Of a stretch of DNA of 38,474 bases, positions 14,637 to 30,731 are shown piece after piece. Positions within the stretch are counted from its first letter, which is position 1; each line of letters starts with the position of its first letter. Source of the DNA: a virus (lineage: Duplodnaviria > Caudoviricetes); the IMG/VR virus record IMGVR_UViG_3300015203_000016, positions 1-38,474 of that record; one strand, given 5' to 3'. Under the pieces are notes generated by a model. The model was given only the letters and a program-made list of their open reading frames with translations. It made no database searches and was not told the origin of the DNA. Both the position numbers and the translations under genes were made by a program.

Positions 14637-15365
14637 CTAGACGCTCACGGCCTGCTGTCCGCCGATCTTGTTGTCCGCGATGAACGCGACGACCTCAGCG
14701 GGGAGGGAGGTGTAGTTCAGCACTCCCCCGGCGGGGGTGATCGCCACGTCCGCGAGGATCGAGGCCGGGCGCATCGTGTAGAAGGCCGCCAGCACCTTGA
14801 GGGCATGGGTGAAGTCCTCGGGGTAGCCGGGTGCCGTGTCGATGGCGACGGTCGAGTCGTAGCCGCCGTCCCCGACGATCACGAGGTCGTCCGGGAGCGA
14901 CGTCCACGCGAACCCACCCCCGAGGTTGCCGGGGTAGTACGGGGAGTCGTTGAGCTGGTCGAACCAGTTGGGGTTCGCGAGCCACCACGGGCGGTCGTTG
15001 TCGGCTCGCCATGCCCGGAACTGCAAGGCCACGTAGACGCCGGTATTGAGCGCGTCGGGGATCGCCCAGCACGAGGCACTACCACCCGGAGCGAAGCCCA
15101 CCGTGAGGGACGAGCCGCCCCACGTCACCGCGGTGAACTGGCGGAAGCCGGGGATCGCGACCTGCGCCTGGAGCATTGTCGCGCCGGGGATCGTCCACGT
15201 CACCTGCGGGCGGTCGAGGAAGAAGCGCCCCGTCCGGCGTTCGAGGAAGCGGGTTGCGGCGCGGATGTTGCTGCCGATCGTCGCGTCCGAGTACGTCGAG
15301 GTCGAGCCGGGGGTGTTGAGCCGGAGGTACTCGCGGACCCCATCGGTGCTGATGATGAGACTCAT
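14637..15365 (-). CDS. head-tail adaptor (gp6/gp15-like)
   Basis: VREYL..AATRFLERRTGRFF..PEDFTHALKVLAAFY..LPAEVVAFI; ATG 15365. Confidence 0.8.
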   Translation of the reverse strand: MSLIISTDGVREYLRLNTPGSTSTYSDATIGSNIRAATRFLERRTGRFFLDRPQVTWTIPGATMLQAQVAIPGFRQFTAVTWGGSSLTVGFAPGGSASCWAIPDALNTGVYVALQFRAWRADNDRPWWLANPNWFDQLNDSPYYPGNLGGGFAWTSLPDDLVIVGDGGYDSTVAIDTAPGYPEDFTHALKVLAAFYTMRPASILADVAITPAGGVLNYTSLPAEVVAFIADNKIGGQQAVSV

Positions 15366-16624
15366 GCGGCTATCTCCACGCGTGCGGGCGAGAGCAGTTC
15401 GATGAACTGGCGGGCCTTGTCCGCCCATGCGAAGTTCGTCTTGACGTGCAGGGGACCCTTGCCGCCCATGACCTGGCGGCCGGGGGTGTCCTCGACGAGC
15501 GAAGCCACGGCAGCCCCGAACTCGCGCTCGTTGGCGAGGGCCCAGAAGTACGAGTACGGGTTGTCGATGAGGCCACCCGAGACGGTGACGCCGGCGGGCC
15601 CGATGACCTCGGGGACGGCGGAGAAGTCCAGCCCCACCGCCGGGGTGCCGCAGGCGATCGCCTCCGCGATGGTGAGCCCGAAGCCCTCGGCGGAGTTACT
15701 GACGTAGATGTCCGCGGCGTTGTAGAGGATCGCCAGCACGTCCCGGCTGACCTTCCCACCTTGCATCGTGAGCCCGATCCTGCCCCGGAGGTCGGGGTAC
15801 TTGGAAAACTCGTGGCCGATCCCCGCCGGCATCCCCTCGTCGTGGTCGCGGCAGTGGAAGAGCGCCGACACGTTCGGATGCGAGCGCAGGACCGGCGCGA
15901 GGCTCCGCAGGAGCGAGGGGTAGCCCTTGCGCGGCATGAGGCGGTCGGCCCGGTACAGCCAGACGTGGCTGGGGTCGGGTCCGGGGTCGATCATGGCGTG
16001 GACGAACTGCTTGCAGTCGGCCTTGCTGCGGAGCTTGATCTTCTTGGTCCCCGTGTCGATGACGATGGGCGACCACGGGTAGACCGGGTGGAAGATCGAG
16101 GTATCGACGCCGTGGTAGATGACCGGCGGGCGCTTGCCGGTGACGCGCTCAATCTCCGTCGCCCCGGCTTCGCTGATCGCCACGGGCGGGAGCTTCGCCC
16201 AGGTACGCCCCCACGAAGGAGGGAGCCCGACGCCCTCGATGGGGACGTAGTGGACGGCGGGGAAGCCGTCGGGGATGAGATCGACCACGGGACTGATGTC
16301 GAGCGAGCCCATATCCCCGAGGATGATCGCGGCGGTCGGCTGCCAGCCATCCGCGAAGAGGCCGCCCGTGAACATCCCCGTGATCTTCTCGTAGGCCGCT
16401 GCCAGCGCCTCGCGGTGGCTCTCGGGACCCGACACCAGCCAGCCGGACGGGATGCCGAGGTCGGCGGTCCTGCCTTCGAAGGGGTAGCCGAGGTCCGTGC
16501 CGGGCTGCTCGTTGATCGACATGAAGCGGACGTCCACGCCCTCCGCGATCAGTGCGGAGCCGAGGTCGCGGGTGACGTTGCCGAAGCCAGTCGCCGCGCT
16601 GTCCCCACAAAACAGGAGCCTCAC
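15362..16624 (-). CDS. glycosyltransferase, GT-B (GT4-like)
   Basis: TGFGNV, IYHGVD, RKG, LYNAADIYV..EGFGLTIAEAIACGTP; GTG 16624. Confidence 0.92.
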   Translation of the reverse strand: MRLLFCGDSAATGFGNVTRDLGSALIAEGVDVRFMSINEQPGTDLGYPFEGRTADLGIPSGWLVSGPESHREALAAAYEKITGMFTGGLFADGWQPTAAIILGDMGSLDISPVVDLIPDGFPAVHYVPIEGVGLPPSWGRTWAKLPPVAISEAGATEIERVTGKRPPVIYHGVDTSIFHPVYPWSPIVIDTGTKKIKLRSKADCKQFVHAMIDPGPDPSHVWLYRADRLMPRKGYPSLLRSLAPVLRSHPNVSALFHCRDHDEGMPAGIGHEFSKYPDLRGRIGLTMQGGKVSRDVLAILYNAADIYVSNSAEGFGLTIAEAIACGTPAVGLDFSAVPEVIGPAGVTVSGGLIDNPYSYFWALANEREFGAAVASLVEDTPGRQVMGGKGPLHVKTNFAWADKARQFIELLSPARVEIAA

Positions 16625-17544
16625 ACGAGCACTCCTTCCGCGCAGGCGACCATGCGTGCCACGAGCGCCTGCGGGGTGTGGAAGCGTTCGACGTGCTCCT
16701 GCCCGATGCCGCCCCACTTGTGGCGCAGGTACTCGTCGCGGACCAGTGCCTCGACTTCGGTTTCGAGGGTCGCACGGGTGGCGTTCACGAACGGCAGACG
16801 CCCGAAGTCGCGGAGCATCCGCCCTTCCGTCTCGGGATCGGCGATGCCGGACACGACGGGGATGCCCATCGACCAGCACTCCAGGGCGTTGAGCCCGTAG
16901 CCGAGCGTCAGTTCGTCGATGAAGATGTCGGCGGTCGCCTTCCTTCGGAGACATTCGGCGTTCGGGACGCGCTCGATCAGGTCGAAGGTGATCGGGTACT
17001 TCTGCGAGAGTCGGTCCACCACGTCCACGATCACGTCCGTGCTCTTGATTGCCCGGTCGGTTGGGGCGTGGGCGATCCTCACCACGTCAGATGCATGATA
17101 GAGGTCGGCACGGAGCGCGGCTAGAGGTTCGGGGTCGATGACGTCCGGCAGCCAATCCTCGACGCCGAAGCGCATGAGGTCGTGCATATCCACCACCTCG
17201 CGGGCGTGGATAGCCTGGCACTGGGAGTGGACGAGCTCGGGCTGGCGTCGGTACCACGTCCCGAGGTGCCAGACGATGAGGTTCGGGTGCGGCGGGAACA
17301 GGCTCGCCGCGAGGGGGCGCTCGATGAGGACGACGCAATCCGCCTCGGTCCAGAGGCGCATGACCTCGGCGGTCTGGTTGGGGTCGTCGCGGTTCCACTG
17401 GATGTCGCAGCCGTAGTCGAGCCACGAGTTCTCGCACCGGACGTGGCGCGCGGAGTGCTCCCCGCCGTACTGGTCGAAGGCGCGCTTCATCCCGATCCCG
17501 AGGCCCGCGGTATCGACGGTCTGCGAGAAGAAGAGGATCTTCAC
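16621..17544 (-). CDS. glycosyltransferase, GT-B
   Basis: IAHAPT..KST, ADIFIDEL..GYGLNALECWSMGIPVV. Confidence 0.85.
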   Translation of the reverse strand: MKILFFSQTVDTAGLGIGMKRAFDQYGGEHSARHVRCENSWLDYGCDIQWNRDDPNQTAEVMRLWTEADCVVLIERPLAASLFPPHPNLIVWHLGTWYRRQPELVHSQCQAIHAREVVDMHDLMRFGVEDWLPDVIDPEPLAALRADLYHASDVVRIAHAPTDRAIKSTDVIVDVVDRLSQKYPITFDLIERVPNAECLRRKATADIFIDELTLGYGLNALECWSMGIPVVSGIADPETEGRMLRDFGRLPFVNATRATLETEVEALVRDEYLRHKWGGIGQEHVERFHTPQALVARMVACAEGVLV

Positions 17545-18278
17545 GACAGCGCCGCCCGGATCGTCGCGGTGCGTTCTGTCAACGCGTCACGGTCCTCGAC
17601 CAGCCCGGCACGGAACGCCCGGATGCGATCGGCGTCCCAGCCGTAGCCCGCACACTGCTCGGCGACGGCCCGGTTGTGCTCCACGACCTCCGCCCGGTAG
17701 GCGGAGCCGAAGCCGGTCGCTGGATCGTGCGTGAGCGAGCCCTCGCGGATGCGCTTGTGATAGCCGGGGATGGTGTTCCACTTGATCGGCGCGAAGTGCG
17801 GCAGGATGTCCTCGAAGAGCAGGGTGTCCTGCCCGCATCGTCGATCCGCCCCATAGCCGCCGACGGAGCGCAGGAGTTCGGCATCGAAGACGCCGAACTC
17901 CACCATCGCCCGATCGTTCGTGCGCAGGTGCATCGAGTCGGGGTAGTGCCACCAGACTGCGCCCGAGGCTTTCGCGGGACCATCAATCGCCATGAGGTTC
18001 GCGAGGTAGTCGGGATCGGTCCAGTCGTCCGCCCCGTGCGGGGCGTACCACTCGAAGGGGTTGCCCATGAGCATCGCCTGCTGCGTGAACGGGGCGCCCC
18101 GGTTGTCGGGGAACGTCACCACGGCGAGACGGTCGTCGGTGATCGTGAGCGGTGGCATCTCCCCGTCGCCCGCGACGAGGCACACGAGGTCGCGGTAGGT
18201 CTGGGCGAGGACGTGGCGCACCGCCTGCTCGATGTAGTCGGCGCAGCCGTAGAACGGGATCGCCACCATGACGGTCAT
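17541..18278 (-). CDS. glycosyltransferase, GT2-like
   Basis: VMVAIPFY..YIEQAV..VLAQT, GADD, VGGY, GQD. Confidence 0.85.
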   Translation of the reverse strand: MTVMVAIPFYGCADYIEQAVRHVLAQTYRDLVCLVAGDGEMPPLTITDDRLAVVTFPDNRGAPFTQQAMLMGNPFEWYAPHGADDWTDPDYLANLMAIDGPAKASGAVWWHYPDSMHLRTNDRAMVEFGVFDAELLRSVGGYGADRRCGQDTLLFEDILPHFAPIKWNTIPGYHKRIREGSLTHDPATGFGSAYRAEVVEHNRAVAEQCAGYGWDADRIRAFRAGLVEDRDALTERTATIRAALS

Positions 18279-18949
18279 GCGTACTCCGCGATGGCTTCGC
18301 GTCGGAGCTCCGCGAACCGCGGCTCCCGGACCAGCGGCAGCGGCCCGCTCATGTTCTGGTGGTGGCGGCGGTACAGCCACGTCGGCTCGGTGATCGTCGT
18401 GAACCGTGCGCCCTTCGAGGCGAGGGCCAGCCAGAGGGTGAGCATCATGGCGCGCTCCCGCTCCGGTCGTAGAAGCCCCTCAGCCACCGAACGTCGAAGG
18501 AGCGCGCCATCATTGACCGCCACGATGTCGGCCTTCAGGTCCTCGAAGGTGACGGGCGGCAGGATGTAGGGCTGGCGGAAGTCTAGGTCCGGCCCGACGA
18601 GGTTGTACGAGTTCGCCACCACGTCGGCGTCCTCGATCGCGGCGAGGTTGAGGGTGAACCAGTCCGGCAGCATGATGTCGTCGTCGCCCCAGAACGACGT
18701 ATACGTGGAGTCGGACGCCTCGAAGCCCGCCGCGAGGGTCGCAGCGACCCCGCCGTTGACATCCCGGCGGATGTAGTCGGCCCCGAACCGCCGCGCGGTG
18801 TCCTCGGCCGACGAGAGCCCGGCGTCATCGACCACCAGCACCCGGATGCTGGCATCGGTGCGCTCACGGGCGACGTTGATGCTCTCCAGCTCCTCGGCCA
18901 GCCATCGCGGGCGGTCGTAGGTGGCCACGATGATCGTGACGTCAGTCAT
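18275..18949 (-). CDS. glycosyltransferase, GT2
   Basis: VTIIVATYDR, VVDDA, GDDD, LYRRH. Confidence 0.9.
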   Translation of the reverse strand: MTDVTIIVATYDRPRWLAEELESINVARERTDASIRVLVVDDAGLSSAEDTARRFGADYIRRDVNGGVAATLAAGFEASDSTYTSFWGDDDIMLPDWFTLNLAAIEDADVVANSYNLVGPDLDFRQPYILPPVTFEDLKADIVAVNDGALLRRSVAEGLLRPERERAMMLTLWLALASKGARFTTITEPTWLYRRHHQNMSGPLPLVREPRFAELRREAIAEYA

Positions 18950-19016
18950 CGCCGGCTCGCAGGTAGGCGATGCCCACGATGACCGCCGACACCGCGTAGA
19001 TCACCAGGACGATCAT
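18942..19016 (-). CDS. 24-aa membrane peptide
   Basis: MIVLVIYAVSAVIVGIAYLRAGDD; overlaps both neighbours. Confidence 0.4.
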   Translation of the reverse strand: MIVLVIYAVSAVIVGIAYLRAGDD

Positions 19017-19546
19017 GTGAACTGCTCGTGGTAGATCGAGAGGTTGCCCGCCGCCGTCCGTCGGGCGTTGGGCATGAGCGCCCGGTAGTCGTGGGCGTAC
19101 TGGTAGGCGGTCGATTGCCCCGTCTCGTCCCAGTCCATGACCACGAGATCCCGCCGCGCCCACGTCCGCATCCGGTCGAGGACCGCGCCCACGTCCTCGC
19201 GGTGCAGGTGGCCCAGGACGGAGATGGCGAGCACGAGGTCCCACTGGCGGTCGCTGGTGAAGATGGCGAGGTCGGAGCAGATCACCTCCGCGTCGGGGAA
19301 CCGCGACTGCGTCGTCGCCACGAGGTCGGGCGAGACATCGACCCCGGTGTAGGCGGCCATCGGGTTGAGGCGGGCGATGTTCGCGGCGATGCGCCCGTAA
19401 CCGCAACCGAGGTCGAGCACGGTATCGAACGGGATCAACCCCAGCAGCATTGAGAGCGCGGGGTCCTCCGCGTTCCAGTTCTCGGGGTGCTCGGACGCGA
19501 AGGTCTTCCCCCGATCCGTCCAGTAGGTGACGGGATCGTACGTCAC
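19013..19546 (-). CDS. class I SAM-dependent methyltransferase
   Basis: VLDLGCGYGR, YTGVDVS, WDLVLAISVLGH. Confidence 0.9.
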   Translation of the reverse strand: MTYDPVTYWTDRGKTFASEHPENWNAEDPALSMLLGLIPFDTVLDLGCGYGRIAANIARLNPMAAYTGVDVSPDLVATTQSRFPDAEVICSDLAIFTSDRQWDLVLAISVLGHLHREDVGAVLDRMRTWARRDLVVMDWDETGQSTAYQYAHDYRALMPNARRTAAGNLSIYHEQFT

Positions 19547-22768: not shown

Positions 22769-23209
22769 CTACGTTGTCGCCAGCCCGACCTTGGTGTAGG
22801 CCGAACCGTTCCATGCGTACAGACCGCCGGTCGTGGCGGCGGTATCGAAGTAGAGGAGGCTCGTAAATGTCGCGCCGGGTGCCCCGGAACCCGAGGTGAG
22901 AACTTCGGACAGCCACATCACACCGACCGACGTGTCGGGACTGTCCGCCCCGGCAAGGATTTGGCCGATCCCTGCGAAGTGCCCCGTTCCCCCTGCGGTC
23001 CCCCCCTTGCTCTTGACGATGAGACCGCCCTCTAGCCCCGCTGCGTCACCTTCCCCGCCCTGCGTAATGATCCGAGCCCCATTGACGCCGTTAGGCGACG
23101 TGGCACCTCCGATAGCCACATCACCGCCGTAGCCGTTGGGATTGTCGGAACCTGCGCTCGCATTCACGTTGGCCCCGAACGGGCTGTTCGTGATGGATGA
23201 GTTGCCCAT
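22769..23209 (-). CDS. Gly-rich virion protein (head fibre/decoration-like)
   Basis: ends LYFDTAATTGGLYAWNGSAYTKV; between portal and protease. Confidence 0.55.
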   Translation of the reverse strand: MGNSSITNSPFGANVNASAGSDNPNGYGGDVAIGGATSPNGVNGARIITQGGEGDAAGLEGGLIVKSKGGTAGGTGHFAGIGQILAGADSPDTSVGVMWLSEVLTSGSGAPGATFTSLLYFDTAATTGGLYAWNGSAYTKVGLATT

Positions 23210-23217
23210 TGCATTCC

Positions 23218-26097
23218 CTAGATCACTGGCAGGAAGTCGCGGGTACAGTTCGTTACCACGAAGCCGCTGCTACAATAGAGGCTATCTACGGCGGAGGCGT
23301 CATAGGCCCAGCCGATCCAGTGGGTCGCCTCGATGGCGACGATCGGGAGGAGTGCGAAGTGACCAGCACCGGCGCCGCTCATGCCGCCAGACGCGGCCAG
23401 AAGGACTCGCTCCTTACTCGGGAGCGACGCGCCCTTGCGCGCTTCCGTCGCCAGTTGGGCACCGGCACCCGCGAGGACCAGTTCGCGGCTCTCCTCCGCG
23501 ATGCCGAGGTCCCATTCCTGCGCCAGTTTCCCAGCGGGCCATACAACATCGACTTCGCCCTGACAGAACACTCCGTCGTGGTGGAAGTCGTCACCGGCGG
23601 CGGCAATACGAACGTGGCGGCGGCCCGGAAGGATCGACTCGAATACCTGCTCGATCGCTGGAACCTGTTCGAGCTCCAGTTCTCCGGTGCGCAGCGCGCG
23701 GAGCAGGTCATCGTGGCGAAGGTCATAGACGAGTTGCTGGCCTTCCTCCAGGAGACGCGCCGGAGTCATGCCGTGTTCGGCAAGCATCGGGTGGTTCGGC
23801 CCGATGGTCACCGTCCGATCCCCCGCAAGCGTCACCCGCATGGCGGGCCCGTCGTACCACGCGCGGCGCATCTCCAAGAGCCCGCCGTAGGGGATGAAGG
23901 TCGATCCGCCTAGCACCGCGTTCGGATGGCCCAGTTCGTCGGGAGCCTCGGTGATCGGCACGGTCACGTCGGCCCACGGGGCGCAGATGTCGTCCCCGTC
24001 GCCGTCGAGGACCTGGATCATCTCGATCCCGAAGTCCGAATACGACCCGAGCGCGGCGGCGTTGTACGCGGTGCCAGTCTCGGTGCGGGCGATGAGCTCG
24101 CTGCGGTACTCGTCGAAGCCCGACCACGCCTCGATGGCGTCCCCGAGCTCGGCCGGGCCCATGCCCTGCTCGATGCCCTGAACCACGAGGTCGTTGATCC
24201 CGTCGCGGGTCGTCTTGTTGATGCCCGTGACCTTCGCCGCGCCGCGGGTGAGGACGGACGTGATCGCGCCGTTCATGACGGGGTTGCCGCTGCTATCGAC
24301 GAGCGGATCGGCCTTGCGCCCGCGCATGACCGTATCCCCGACGTGGGTGCGGACGTGCTCCGCCACTCCGAGGAGCGCGGGCTTGATCGCGGCGACCATC
24401 GCCTCGTCCCACTTGGCGTTCGGCGGCCACCACAGCGTCGTATCGGACGGCTTGGCCTTGATCCGCTCGTACTGGCCTCGCACCCGCCCGGCGATGTCGC
24501 GCTTCTGGGCATCGAGGACGAGCGACACGCTACCGCGCATCTGCGGGATCACCCGTGCGCTGAGGTTCTGCTTCAGCGCACGCATCGACCGCTGGTAGCC
24601 CGCGAGCGGCCCGCCGGTCACCGCGTCAAGGGGCAGCGGGTCGGCCTTCATCGGTTGCGCCATGACGGGCTTCGCGGTGTCGATCGGGGACAGCGCCGGG
24701 GTGGACTCGTTGGAGACGATCTCCGCCGACTCGGGTGCCCATGATGGGACGGACACGCTGCGCGGGATGTAGTTCGGGGTGGCGGCGGTCGGTCCACCGA
24801 CCGGGAAGATGCTGATCCCCGTCCAGACCTCGCCGCCGAGGGGCTTGCCGGTCGGTCCGATCAGTTCCTCGGGGAGCGGATCGAAGCCGATGAGCCCGCG
24901 ACGCTCGTCGTTGGTGAGGGCGATGAACTGCGCCTTCTGGACCTTGTCGTAGCGGGGCGAGTCGTCGTCGAACTCGGGGATGTCGAACTCGATGGTCGGC
25001 GCCCAGCCCAGCATCGTCTCGAAGGTGTCGAGGATTTCGGTGATCGCCACGCTGATCCGGGACAGGCGCGGGGTGATCGCGTTCTCCCAGAGCGCCGCCT
25101 TGTCGTACTTCCGCACGTCGCCACTGTTGAGGCCGGCGGGGGATGAGCCGCCGATCTGGCTGAGCGGGACGCGCCACAGCGCCAGCAGGTCGTCGCGGTT
25201 CTTGGTCATCAGGTCCACGAGCGCCAGTTCCGCGATGGTCGCCGCGGTCTTCGTGAAGTCGATCGGCGCCCGGACCACCTGGAGCCGCCGCGCGGAGTCG
25301 GGCTGCTCGGTGATGTTCCGCCAGTCGCGGGTCATCTGGTTGAAGATGCCGTCGTCGTCGATGAGGCCGGTCTTGGGCGAGAGGATGCCCGCCAGCCGTC
25401 CACCGGATTGCAGGACGCTGCTGAAGTGGCGGTCGATGGCGCCGTTGAGCATCGCCTTCGTCATGGCCGACTCGACGAGGCCCGGACTCCACACGCCCAT
25501 GTCGGGGGTCTGGAGGTTGATGATGATGATCTCGTTCGGCTCCAGGCGCGTCCCCTCGTAGCCCGGACGGCGGTCGAGCTGCCAGTGGTCGAGCTGGTTG
25601 TTGCTGCTGGTCGCGTAGACCGGGGTCAGGCGGTCGGGCCGGACGTAGATGATCGCCTTGGGGGTGCCGAAGGTGTTGATGCCGTCGAGGTACCACGCAC
25701 CCTGCCCCGCGAGGCCCATGTGCCGGCTGGTGATCTCCCACTGCGCGTTCCGGGACTGGATCACCCCCACCTCGGCGCGGTCGAGGGTGCCCATCGGGTT
25801 CGTGATGAGCTCGTACGCTTCCTTCGCCCGCGGATCGCCGGGGTAGGCGGCGTCGATCGTCTCCTCGTCGGGGTCTTCGAGGTGCCAGGCCACGCCCGCG
25901 AGCGGGTCCGCGATCTGCCCGCCGATGGTCGCCTCGGCCGCGCGGATGTACCCGACCTCCGTGCCCATCTGGACGTACTTCGCCATACGCTGGTTGGCAT
26001 CGCCGGTCAGGACGTTGGGCAGCAGGTACTCGGTGTTGAGGACGCCTGCGCCGGGACCGATCGGGCCGGCCTTGCGGTTCGGGACGTAGATCGCCAT
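23218..26097 (-). CDS. portal protein fused to a MuF/SPP1 gp7-like head morphogenesis domain, containing an intein
   Basis: portal motifs (GQGAWY, RPDR, LWRVP, ITPRL, TNDERR) in about aa 1-420; MuF motifs (INKTTRD, IARTET, DDIC, HPN|C) from about aa 500. Confidence 0.9.
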   Translation of the reverse strand: MAIYVPNRKAGPIGPGAGVLNTEYLLPNVLTGDANQRMAKYVQMGTEVGYIRAAEATIGGQIADPLAGVAWHLEDPDEETIDAAYPGDPRAKEAYELITNPMGTLDRAEVGVIQSRNAQWEITSRHMGLAGQGAWYLDGINTFGTPKAIIYVRPDRLTPVYATSSNNQLDHWQLDRRPGYEGTRLEPNEIIIINLQTPDMGVWSPGLVESAMTKAMLNGAIDRHFSSVLQSGGRLAGILSPKTGLIDDDGIFNQMTRDWRNITEQPDSARRLQVVRAPIDFTKTAATIAELALVDLMTKNRDDLLALWRVPLSQIGGSSPAGLNSGDVRKYDKAALWENAITPRLSRISVAITEILDTFETMLGWAPTIEFDIPEFDDDSPRYDKVQKAQFIALTNDERRGLIGFDPLPEELIGPTGKPLGGEVWTGISIFPVGGPTAATPNYIPRSVSVPSWAPESAEIVSNESTPALSPIDTAKPVMAQPMKADPLPLDAVTGGPLAGYQRSMRALKQNLSARVIPQMRGSVSLVLDAQKRDIAGRVRGQYERIKAKPSDTTLWWPPNAKWDEAMVAAIKPALLGVAEHVRTHVGDTVMRGRKADPLVDSSGNPVMNGAITSVLTRGAAKVTGINKTTRDGINDLVVQGIEQGMGPAELGDAIEAWSGFDEYRSELIARTETGTAYNAAALGSYSDFGIEMIQVLDGDGDDICAPWADVTVPITEAPDELGHPNAVLGGSTFIPYGGLLEMRRAWYDGPAMRVTLAGDRTVTIGPNHPMLAEHGMTPARLLEEGQQLVYDLRHDDLLRALRTGELELEQVPAIEQVFESILPGRRHVRIAAAGDDFHHDGVFCQGEVDVVWPAGKLAQEWDLGIAEESRELVLAGAGAQLATEARKGASLPSKERVLLAASGGMSGAGAGHFALLPIVAIEATHWIGWAYDASAVDSLYCSSGFVVTNCTRDFLPVI
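23268..23276 (+). promoter_or_regulatory. extended -10 antisense promoter inside the intein
   Basis: TGcTACAAT, formed by AT-rich intein codons TAT TGT AGC A; about 80 nt upstream of the nested gene. Confidence 0.55.
23359..23913 (+). CDS. DUF559/Vsr-like PD-(D/E)xK endonuclease nested antisense in the intein (putative homing endonuclease), 184 aa
   Basis: GGAGG 23346-23350, GTG 23359; AAHAARRGQKDS..RA basic helix, then E..F..LL...RQFPSGPYNIDFA..VVVEV..RLEYLLDRW; TAG is the complement of the intein CTA codon. Confidence 0.75.
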   Translation: MTSTGAAHAARRGQKDSLLTRERRALARFRRQLGTGTREDQFAALLRDAEVPFLRQFPSGPYNIDFALTEHSVVVEVVTGGGNTNVAAARKDRLEYLLDRWNLFELQFSGAQRAEQVIVAKVIDELLAFLQETRRSHAVFGKHRVVRPDGHRPIPRKRHPHGGPVVPRAAHLQEPAVGDEGRSA

Positions 26098-28338: not shown

Positions 28339-29340
28339 TCAGACAGTCACCTCGTCATCCATGACCTCGGACTCGTGCATTGCCTCGATCCAGGACAGTT
28401 CCTCAGTCTGCTCCCCGTCGAGCGTTTCGAGGTTCTTGACGGCCTGCCGGTAGTACGAGGGCTTGAGTTCGGCCCCAATCCCGAGTCGGCCGGCTTTCAC
28501 CGCCGAGTAGACCTCCGATCCGACACCCATGAATGGGGTCAGGATGCGCTCGCCGGGGTTCGACCACAGCACGATCGTTCGGTCGATCACGTCGAGCTGC
28601 AGCGGGTGGACGTGCTTCTCGTCTTCCTCGTCCCGCGCCTCCCGGAATGGCAGCACCCGATCAAGCCGCACGTCATCCCAGAACGCGGACGCGTACTGCC
28701 TCCAGATCCAATGGCTGTAGCGGTTCTCGATCTGGTTGCCCTGCCAGTTCCGGTAGCGCAGGAGTTCGGTCGGGATTGGCCGGTCGCCGGCGTACTCCAT
28801 GAGCCCGTGCGGGTGGGCGATCGGCACGGGGTTGTCGCCCTTGCGTCGGAACACGAGCAGGTAGTCCGCCGATGCGACGGCGCATTTGCTTGAGTCGTCA
28901 ACGATGGTCTTGTGGGCGAGGGCCTTGACCATCGTTCGGTTGCGGACGGTCAGCGGCTCCTTCCAGACGTGATACCGGGCGACATAGGTGAACCCCACCC
29001 GCTCATGCATTCGGATGATGTCGCCGGGAAAGTCCCGGAGCCCGTCACCCTTGCCGGTGTTCGAGGTCGGCACGTCCATGCAGTGAACGGCGGTCATCCG
29101 TCCCGGCATCGTGGTCCGGTAGAGCTCGTGCACCACGTATTCGTAGTGCTCGAAGAACTCCTCGTAGCCGCCCGAGTTGGACAGGTCCCGCTCGTCCGAG
29201 CTGTAGATGTAGAGCCCCGCGAACGGCGGCGAGTAGACCGACAGGTGGATCGACGCGTCCGGCAGGCCAGCCATGACCTCCATGCAATCGCCGTTGTATA
29301 GCGCGTATCGGTCGGTGATCTTCTGATCTAGGAGAGCCAC
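28339..29340 (-). CDS. DNA methyltransferase (N4-C/N6-A, beta class)
   Basis: YNGDC, SPPF catalytic motif, HVHP, TPFMGVGS, GAELKPSY; GTG 29340. Confidence 0.9.
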   Translation of the reverse strand: MALLDQKITDRYALYNGDCMEVMAGLPDASIHLSVYSPPFAGLYIYSSDERDLSNSGGYEEFFEHYEYVVHELYRTTMPGRMTAVHCMDVPTSNTGKGDGLRDFPGDIIRMHERVGFTYVARYHVWKEPLTVRNRTMVKALAHKTIVDDSSKCAVASADYLLVFRRKGDNPVPIAHPHGLMEYAGDRPIPTELLRYRNWQGNQIENRYSHWIWRQYASAFWDDVRLDRVLPFREARDEEDEKHVHPLQLDVIDRTIVLWSNPGERILTPFMGVGSEVYSAVKAGRLGIGAELKPSYYRQAVKNLETLDGEQTEELSWIEAMHESEVMDDEVTV

Positions 29341-30731
29341 GCGGGAACCTCGACTTTCTGCACCCCGATCCGGGAGCGGTTGATCGACAGCGCATCGTTC
29401 ATGTGACCCACCAGCGCGTCGAACATCTTGTCGGCTTGGGTCGCCTTGCGTTCGAGGTTGTCGAGCGCGTTCTTGCCGCCTTCGGTGGTCACGATGTCCA
29501 CGACCACGGGCGACTTCTGGCCGAACCTCCACGACCGTCTGACGGCTTGGTAGTACTGCTCGTAGGAGTGGCTCGGGAAGAACGTCATCCGGTGGCAGTG
29601 CTGCCAGTTGAGGCCCCACGCGCCGATGATCGGCTTGGTCACGAGCACTCGGATCTGCCCGTGCGTGAAGGCTGCTAGGGCTTCTTCCTTCGCCTCGATC
29701 GAGTCGGAGCCCGACACCTGGACGGCACCGGGGATGAGTTTCGAGAGAAGGTCGCCCTCGGGGTTGAGATAGCACCACGCGACCGCCGACTCGGCGCCAG
29801 TCAGGAGCTCGGCCACTTGCTCGCAGCGCTCGGGGATCGTCCGGCGCATCTCTGCTCGCTCCTCGTGGATGCCGATGGCCGGGAAGTCGAACAGTGTTCC
29901 CTCGGCCTTCGTCCGGGAGTCGATGATGTGCTGGCGGTGGATGAGATCCGGCAGGATGAAGCCGTCATCCTCGAAGTCCATGTCGGAGGGTCGGCGGAGG
30001 GCTCGGGCCCATGAGCAGACCCAGCGCCAGAAGGGGTCCTCGGCGTGACCCTTGAACCTCCACTTCCCTTGCTTGAGATTACCGCCATCATCTCGGGCCG
30101 TATTCCACCGTCCGGGCCGGCGCATCCGAACCGCATTGCCTTCGTCGTTCTTGAAGAAGCGGCTGAGCATATCCATGTGCCCGAGGTAGCCCAACGCCTC
30201 CGAACTGGTCCCGAGTTCGATGTAGTCGTTCGGCGCGGCGGTCGCCGTGGCGAGCAGGCGATACCGCACCTTCCGCATGAAGTCGGTCACTTCCTGCCGG
30301 CGCACCCCGTCGAAGCTCTTGATCGCACTCGACTCGTCGCAGACCACGCCCCCATAGTCCGTCCAGTCGAAGAGGTGCAGCCGATCGTAGTTCGTGATCG
30401 TGATCCCGGCGACGACATGGCCGGTCCGGGAGACTGCGGCCTCGATGCCAAACTTGGCCGCCTCTTCAGTGGTCTGGATCGACACGGCCAGCGGGGTCAG
30501 GATGAGCACCGGCTTGCCCGTCTTGCGCCGGACGTTCTCGGCCCATACCAGCTGCATCGGCGTCTTGCCGAGTCCACAGTCCGCGAAGATCGCCCCGCGC
30601 CCCTTGCGGATCGCCCACTCCACGAGCGCCCGCTGGAACGGGAAGAGGAAGTCGGGTATCCACAGCGGCTCGAACCCATCGAGCCCGTCGAGTTGCGTCT
30701 TGCGCTCGAGGAACTCCGCGTAGTCGATCAT
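29328..30731 (-). CDS. SNF2-like superfamily 2 helicase
   Basis: FPFQ, DCGLGKT, DESS, TATAAPN, GLNWQ, YYQAVRRSWRFGQ. Confidence 0.92.
   Translation of the reverse strand: MIDYAEFLERKTQLDGLDGFEPLWIPDFLFPFQRALVEWAIRKGRGAIFADCGLGKTPMQLVWAENVRRKTGKPVLILTPLAVSIQTTEEAAKFGIEAAVSRTGHVVAGITITNYDRLHLFDWTDYGGVVCDESSAIKSFDGVRRQEVTDFMRKVRYRLLATATAAPNDYIELGTSSEALGYLGHMDMLSRFFKNDEGNAVRMRRPGRWNTARDDGGNLKQGKWRFKGHAEDPFWRWVCSWARALRRPSDMDFEDDGFILPDLIHRQHIIDSRTKAEGTLFDFPAIGIHEERAEMRRTIPERCEQVAELLTGAESAVAWCYLNPEGDLLSKLIPGAVQVSGSDSIEAKEEALAAFTHGQIRVLVTKPIIGAWGLNWQHCHRMTFFPSHSYEQYYQAVRRSWRFGQKSPVVVDIVTTEGGKNALDNLERKATQADKMFDALVGHMNDALSINRSRIGVQKVEVPAWLS

Follow-up and report, generated by a model that had tools for sequence, protein, structure and literature searches.

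An intein in the portal-MuF gene of a tailed phage (Duplodnaviria; Caudoviricetes) carries, on its opposite strand, a conserved gene for a predicted Vsr-like nuclease, which is probably the homing endonuclease (HEN) of that intein. The locus lies in a window of 38,474 nucleotides, the whole stretch of DNA that was analysed (positions 1 to 38,474 of IMG/VR virus record IMGVR_UViG_3300015203_000016). A preliminary description, made from the sequence of the window, knew of no account of this arrangement; one exists, since anti-sense VSR-like HENs in full inteins are described in the accessible text of Gosselin, Arsenault and Gogarten (bioRxiv 10.1101/2025.01.02.630785). The antisense layout is thus already known, and the new part is a class-2-like clade of inteins that begin with alanine (Ala1) and carry a compact, His-less nuclease. 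The features of the locus are listed below, where the ratio is that of nuclease-synonymous to intein-synonymous codon differences.

23218..26097, minus strand: host gene, 959 aa with the intein counted, in which a portal protein is joined to a MuF-like minor head domain
23248..23919, minus strand: intein, 224 aa, with borders equal to the empty HPN|C site of relatives
23779..23919, minus strand: intein blocks A and B, overlapping the last strand, tail and stop codon of the nuclease; ratio 0.16-0.19
23542..23589, minus strand: sense DFHHDG..EVDVV segment (DFHGDG in the family), antisense to the nuclease core
23248..23310, minus strand: intein blocks F and G, ratio 0.12, with a candidate promoter on the opposite strand
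23218..23247, minus strand: C-extein, 9 aa from Cys+1, plus stop
23268..23276, plus strand: candidate extended -10 promoter (predicted), TGCTACAAT
23346..23350, plus strand: candidate Shine-Dalgarno (SD) sequence GGAGG, 8 nt upstream of the GTG
23359..23913, plus strand: predicted antisense Vsr/DUF559-like endonuclease gene, 184 aa, without a helix-turn-helix (HTH)

The host gene matches Pfam Phage_portal (E 2.7e-15) and Phage_Mu_F (E 3.8e-5) and is flanked by terminase and capsid genes in a phage head module. The intein interrupts this fusion at HPN|C, starting with Ala and ending with TN|C. Its borders are set by intein-free relatives, in which HPN is joined directly to CTRD, and the C-extein residues of the window are those that follow HPN in the intein-free locus L090. 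The window protein ends 9 aa past the intein, and the intein-free L090 and L091 run on for about 110 aa. The sense intein is predicted to adopt a Hint fold (AF2 pLDDT 81.8; Z 12.0 to Hint domain 1at0), so that, according to the model, the window holds a contiguous intein frame with a Hint splicing domain; Pfam Intein_splicing is matched by 48 of 63 homologues, and the window's own intein has no match to it. The intein had been described as having splicing blocks at both ends and a featureless middle: the blocks stand, while the middle is modelled at pLDDT 90-95 over residues 91-130 and is disordered only over 131-180. Elsewhere on the minus strand, the virion module after the capsid gene includes glycosyltransferase (two PHROG matches) and methyltransferase genes (15362-19546), and an N6/N4 DNA methylase and a helicase-like gene lie upstream of the terminase (28339-30731), where the long ORFs 28339-29778 and 29328-30731 overlap.

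The antisense ORF lies in exact codon register with the intein frame, from a GTG start at 23359-23361 to a TAG stop at 23911-23913, provided by the strand opposite the CTA codon for Leu at intein residue 3. All of the landmarks first reported for it, namely the -10, the GGAGG, the GTG, the TAG, the length of 184 aa and the CTA codon, check. Its proposed DUF559/Vsr-like identity is supported by structure prediction. The model (AF2 pLDDT 87.4) finds its best structural matches in Vsr, NGO0050 and I-Bth0305I, with VIA Z scores of 11.1 to Vsr 1cw0 (rmsd 2.6, 111 aligned), 10.1 to 3hrl and 9.7 to I-Bth0305I 3r3p, the last of which is also the top Foldseek match (E 2e-4). In profile searches the ORF matched DUF559 below the cut-off (Pfam E 0.004; NCBIfam PRK09767 E 9.6e-5), and Pfam MTES_1575 was matched by 47 of 63 nuclease homologues.

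The family was surveyed from both strands. A tblastn search with the sense intein matched 31 phage records, and 8 of these, chosen without reference to the nuclease, served as the sense-found test set. In all of these named loci (8/8) the antisense frame is open, in register and carries the YNxD..VAVE nuclease motif, as the preliminary description had proposed checking; most of them carry N-terminal HTH-like repeats on the nuclease, two are at about 50% GC, and the antisense gene is annotated in none of the 8 records. The search with the nuclease alone gave 92 IMG/VR relatives, and in the best 80 of the 92 the opposite frame was open with an intein block-B-like motif in 80/80. Taking out 10 duplicates and 5 loci that were incomplete or unparsed left 74 complete inteins (the window, 8 named and 65 from IMG/VR), with 72 different ones in the tree. 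Their middles contain 0 antisense stops in 16,514 codons against 383.5 expected, a count that is partly circular for the 65 loci found via the nuclease. A profile search returned 931 clusters at E <= 1e-30, counted by match alone, a number that HTH parts may inflate. The family hosts include Escherichia, Cronobacter and Pseudomonas phages. Searches with the sense intein found nothing in IMG/VR or in a protein collection covering lengths 123-392. Several members are unusual: L084 (2075-3043) begins with Ser1, the N-terminus of the sense-frame intein of L030 is apparently disrupted, and L004 (Virus Rctr197k, KX853510.1, 2111-3463) has a family intein with its antisense nuclease in a 'putative head morphogenesis protein'. 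The extein of L004 shows an HxE...PCxxC pattern, which we take to be dCMP-deaminase-like, and may represent a switch of host gene.

The strand under selection can be read directly, as in an in-register overlap the wobble position distinguishes the two strands. Among the 13 members of the Ala1 clade, the ratio is 0.16 (residues 1-37), 0.19 (38-68) and 0.12 (188-224) at the ends and 2.7 (69-110), 1.5 (111-150) and 9.6 (151-185) in the middle, against 0.37 in the extein control; across all 74 inteins the six segments in order give 0.24, 0.43, 1.7, 2.9, 4.5 and 0.32, all of these being pairwise counts that are phylogenetically non-independent. The pattern is unchanged by which frame is aligned. 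The middle of the intein therefore evolves under the nuclease frame and both ends under the intein frame, which upholds the dual coding first suggested for the window. A related contig from run X3 differs at 47 positions over 611 bases, and among the 39 differences listed, 11 of the 15 codons that changed within nuclease residues 1-105 leave the nuclease protein unaltered, 8/13 changes in residues 106-140 alter it, and 5/6 changed codons in the tail are intein-synonymous. The DFHGDG segment is constrained in both frames across the family (pLDDT >90): sense H113, G114 and D115 are kept in 69, 70 and 71 of 74, and the opposite nuclease codons are nearly fixed. The window departs from HGD with His114 (1/74). 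This HGD constraint in the sense frame, together with the modelled fold at residues 91-130, indicates that the nuclease core is dual-coded.

On one side of a well-supported branch (SH-aLRT 100; quick tree, midpoint root) stand the window, Rhodococcus phage REQ3 and 11 IMG/VR inteins, and these 13 form the Ala1 clade, which is nested among Cys1 MuF inteins. Nuclease residues E39 (23473), D65 (23551), E76 (23584), N83 (23605) and R93 are invariant in 13/13 of them. In the alignment with 3r3p, E39 falls on the motif Glu and D65 on D196, while N83 occupies the column of H213, the putative general base of I-Bth0305I according to the accessible part of PMC3239194. The suspicion that the His after the ExxG-like motif was absent is thereby confirmed for the window as Asn83. 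In the family profile the D222 column, the last Asp of EDxHD, holds a basic residue. Because the His column is Asn throughout the clade, the nuclease is best called Vsr-like and not strictly EDxHD. It shares with I-Bth0305I the predicted fold (Z 9.7; HMM E 2.4e-5), the motif Glu and the first Asp, but differs in having Asn for His, no last Asp and, apart from two helices, no separate domain for DNA binding at its N-terminus. The Ala1-clade nuclease is short and without the HTH domains that most of its kin have. Within the clade, the nuclease of L014 (2264-3016) is extended at its N-terminus by a CxxC...CxxC segment that may be a zinc finger, and the inteins of L011 (2348-3190) and L024 (2255-3166) have an insertion of about 50 aa between blocks A and B, which in L024, read antisense, resembles by eye an HTH at the C-terminus of the nuclease.

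Candidate expression signals lie within the intein borders. A -10 hexamer of at least 5/6 occurs in 2% of synonymous recodings of the window's intein end. In the Ala1 clade, -10-like hexamers are found in 9/13 against 3.4 expected from such recodings and TG-extended ones in 6/13 against 0.9, and the other family members show -10-like hexamers in 45/61 against 11.4. A scan with a program that needs a -35 gave 0 sites and no -35/-10 pair. GGAGG or AGGAG is barely enriched in the clade (5/13 against 2.9 expected). In four members, namely the window, L012, L013 and L022, the nuclease begins at the 37th codon counted from the intein end and is preceded by an SD, the last three using ATG; L015 has an ATG with a weak SD, the remaining Ala1 members are without an SD, and L010 has no ATG, GTG or TTG in the expected start zone. 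In Cys1 members the start often complements the block-F His codon, and this His is missing from the Ala1 clade; the codon is CAT in 33/39 Cys1 members versus 153/453 of the His codons in exteins, and SD-like sequence lies opposite the residues next to it. The stop falls within intein residues 2-28 in 70/74. An in-frame ATG farther upstream, at 23197, was rejected as the nuclease start: it precedes the -10 and falls beyond the intein border, and 6/12 Ala1 kin (L001, L015, L019, L020, L024 and L011) have an antisense stop at most 27 codons from the intein C-end. A terminator-like site at 24195-24212 on the plus strand is at chance level (1 versus 0.8).

As anticipated in the preliminary description, the element shows signs of mobility, in the form of empty sites in its closest exteins. 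The HPN|C site is empty in 5/6 extein relatives, and the sixth, a distant one, is likewise without the insert. The closest exteins are empty (L090, 81% identical over 100 aa and 150/177 nt; L091, 60%; L092-94, 40-43%), whereas the exteins of intein-bearing kin are only 17-38% identical to that of the window, with intein identities of 27-49%. The distribution is thus patchy, with empty alleles, and the contrast between empty close exteins and divergent intein-bearing ones fits horizontal spread, as judged from these alignments. The contigs of 4 DNA runs contained no clean intein-less joint. Positions 22769-23209 (minus strand), which separate portal-MuF from the following head gene, hold a 146-aa Gly-rich ORF that matches nothing in Pfam or PHROG; contigs of runs X1 and X2 switch to other sequence at 23217, X2 being without cover over 22769-23209, and this stretch is likely a variable module.

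Under the reading of the antisense gene as a HEN, its transcription by the sigma-70-type polymerase of the host would start from the extended -10 facing blocks F and G and would not depend on the late head operon. The enzyme would then nick or cleave HPN|C where a co-infecting phage has this site empty, and the intein would be copied in during the repair that follows.

Three other explanations were weighed. That the antisense ORF is a mere shadow of a conserved sense domain in a GC-rich genome was rejected and retains almost no probability. An earlier caveat on chance antisense ORFs was well placed, as the chance of an open frame in the window alone is about 0.5 under extein codon usage, and the sense frame conserves HGD and is confidently modelled over residues 91-130; the window ORF taken alone is weak, and it is the family evidence on which the gene is judged real. 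The 8/8 open sense-found loci, low-GC phages included, contradict a shadow, as do the strand-selection ratios, with wobble on the antisense frame over residues 69-185, and the match to a nuclease fold with the catalytic acids in place. It is also quite improbable, though far less remote, that the gene of the Ala1 clade is real but has become a remnant, catalytically dead or in need of a partner, which persists for DNA binding or targeting after losing its HTH and His. The Asn in 13/13 and the missing last Asp would suit such a remnant, as would the shortened distance from D65 to the C-end (100-136 codons versus 140-217 in the other 61) and the lack of a recent-homing signature, since no near-identical intein in a divergent extein was found among the family. 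However, the acidic triad E39/D65/E76 is invariant in 13/13, purifying selection goes on in the close relative from run X3, and the His is present in only 44/74 family members, so it is not obligatory in this nuclease family. The compact nuclease, which has no HTH and an Asn in the His position, probably represents a subfamily that is being maintained and not a relic.

The third explanation concerns the intein itself, which might not ligate its exteins, undergoing C-terminal Asn cleavage only or staying in the head protein, tolerated because the C-extein is short or MuF dispensable. The clade has no N-terminal nucleophile, WCT, Thr B7 or penultimate His, changing Cys F4 to Asp in an Ala1-type intein yielded nothing but precursor and C-terminal cleavage according to the accessible text of PMC2807308, and the C-extein of the window is just 9 aa. 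This too is unlikely, given that Ala1, His B10, Asp F4, Asn and Cys+1 persist in 13/13 over exteins of 17-38% identity, the longest C-extein has 793 aa (L019), and the host domain is here fused to the portal protein.

If the Ala1 inteins do splice, their residues bear on the route. Every member of the clade combines Ala1 with Gly B7, His B10, Asp F4, Asn and Cys+1, and none has Trp B12, WCT or an invariant Cys column; the window has Met B12, Asp F4, Val G5 and Thr G6, and the penultimate residue of the clade is Ser in 7, Lys in 5 and Thr in 1, never His. The C119 column is Cys in 11/13, and this partly conserved residue may be an alternative nucleophile. Class 1 was rejected because it needs Cys, Ser or Thr at position 1, and class 3 because it needs Trp B12, Cys F4 and Thr G5, which are absent in the window and in REQ3. 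In their accessible texts, Tori et al. (PMC2807308) state that class 3 requires WCT and that class 2 has neither WCT nor an N-terminal nucleophile, Mills et al. (PMC4031507) that every class 2 intein is an orthologue of KlbA and requires Thr B7, and PMC7765530 gives KlbA as the class 2 example. With class 2 KlbA inteins the clade shares Ala1, the lack of WCT, His B10, Asp F4, a non-His penultimate residue, Asn and Cys+1, but its host gene is MuF and not KlbA, it sits among Cys1 MuF inteins, it has Gly in place of Thr B7 in 13/13, and the window has Thr where Ser G6 is expected. By its signature residues the clade looks class-2-like yet outside KlbA, and the rare class 2 route, in which Cys+1 would attack the N-terminal amide directly, is its likely way of splicing. 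We advance more tentatively, as something short of an even chance, that it represents a second, independent origin of class-2-type splicing, in which a phage MuF clade would have replaced Cys1 by Ala and, jointly with it, Thr B7 by Gly, would splice without the use of an internal Cys, and would spread by means of a small Vsr-like nuclease that has no His and has its promoter, ribosome site, catalytic core and stop codon all in the reverse strand of the splicing domain. In the accessible literature, which includes few subscription journals, no paper turned up that treats phage MuF inteins with Ala1 and no WCT.

The closest known systems are the actinobacteriophage inteins of Gosselin and colleagues (bioRxiv 10.1101/2025.01.02.630785), which agree with the window in layout, nuclease fold and type of host gene. 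According to the accessible text of that paper, minor-capsid inteins carry only non-canonical HENs, anti-sense LAGLIDADG intein HENs are cited from 1998, and the REQ3 minor capsid intein has 225 aa and is labelled class 3, yet REQ3 and the window are both without WCT. REQ3 is the best named match to the window (38% sense and 44% antisense identity over full length) and a member of the same Ala1 clade. No analysis of promoter, start codon or strand selection was found in the same accessible text, where the word 'promoter' has 0 occurrences. In anti-sense LAGLIDADG inteins, such as those of cyanobacterial dnaX (bioRxiv 10.64898/2026.09.14.751524, accessible part), the HEN likewise lies outside the intein frame, but nuclease family and host gene differ from those of the window. 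EDxHD HENs lie in an intron or between split-intein halves, and free-standing Vsr-like HENs between split inteins are described in the available text of Dassa et al. (PMC2677866); the window nuclease, by contrast, is antisense within an intact intein.

The antisense layout is abundant and invisible to standard annotation, and the literature covered, some of it in part, yielded no bench test of it. The family offers a clean natural series for the study of exact in-register overlapping genes. If splicing-competent, the Ala1 clade would supply intein chemists with new small inteins, and, since all class 2 inteins are KlbA orthologues according to the accessible text of a 2014 review, such a clade, if derived from Cys1 ancestors, would show how inteins change from class 1 to class 2.
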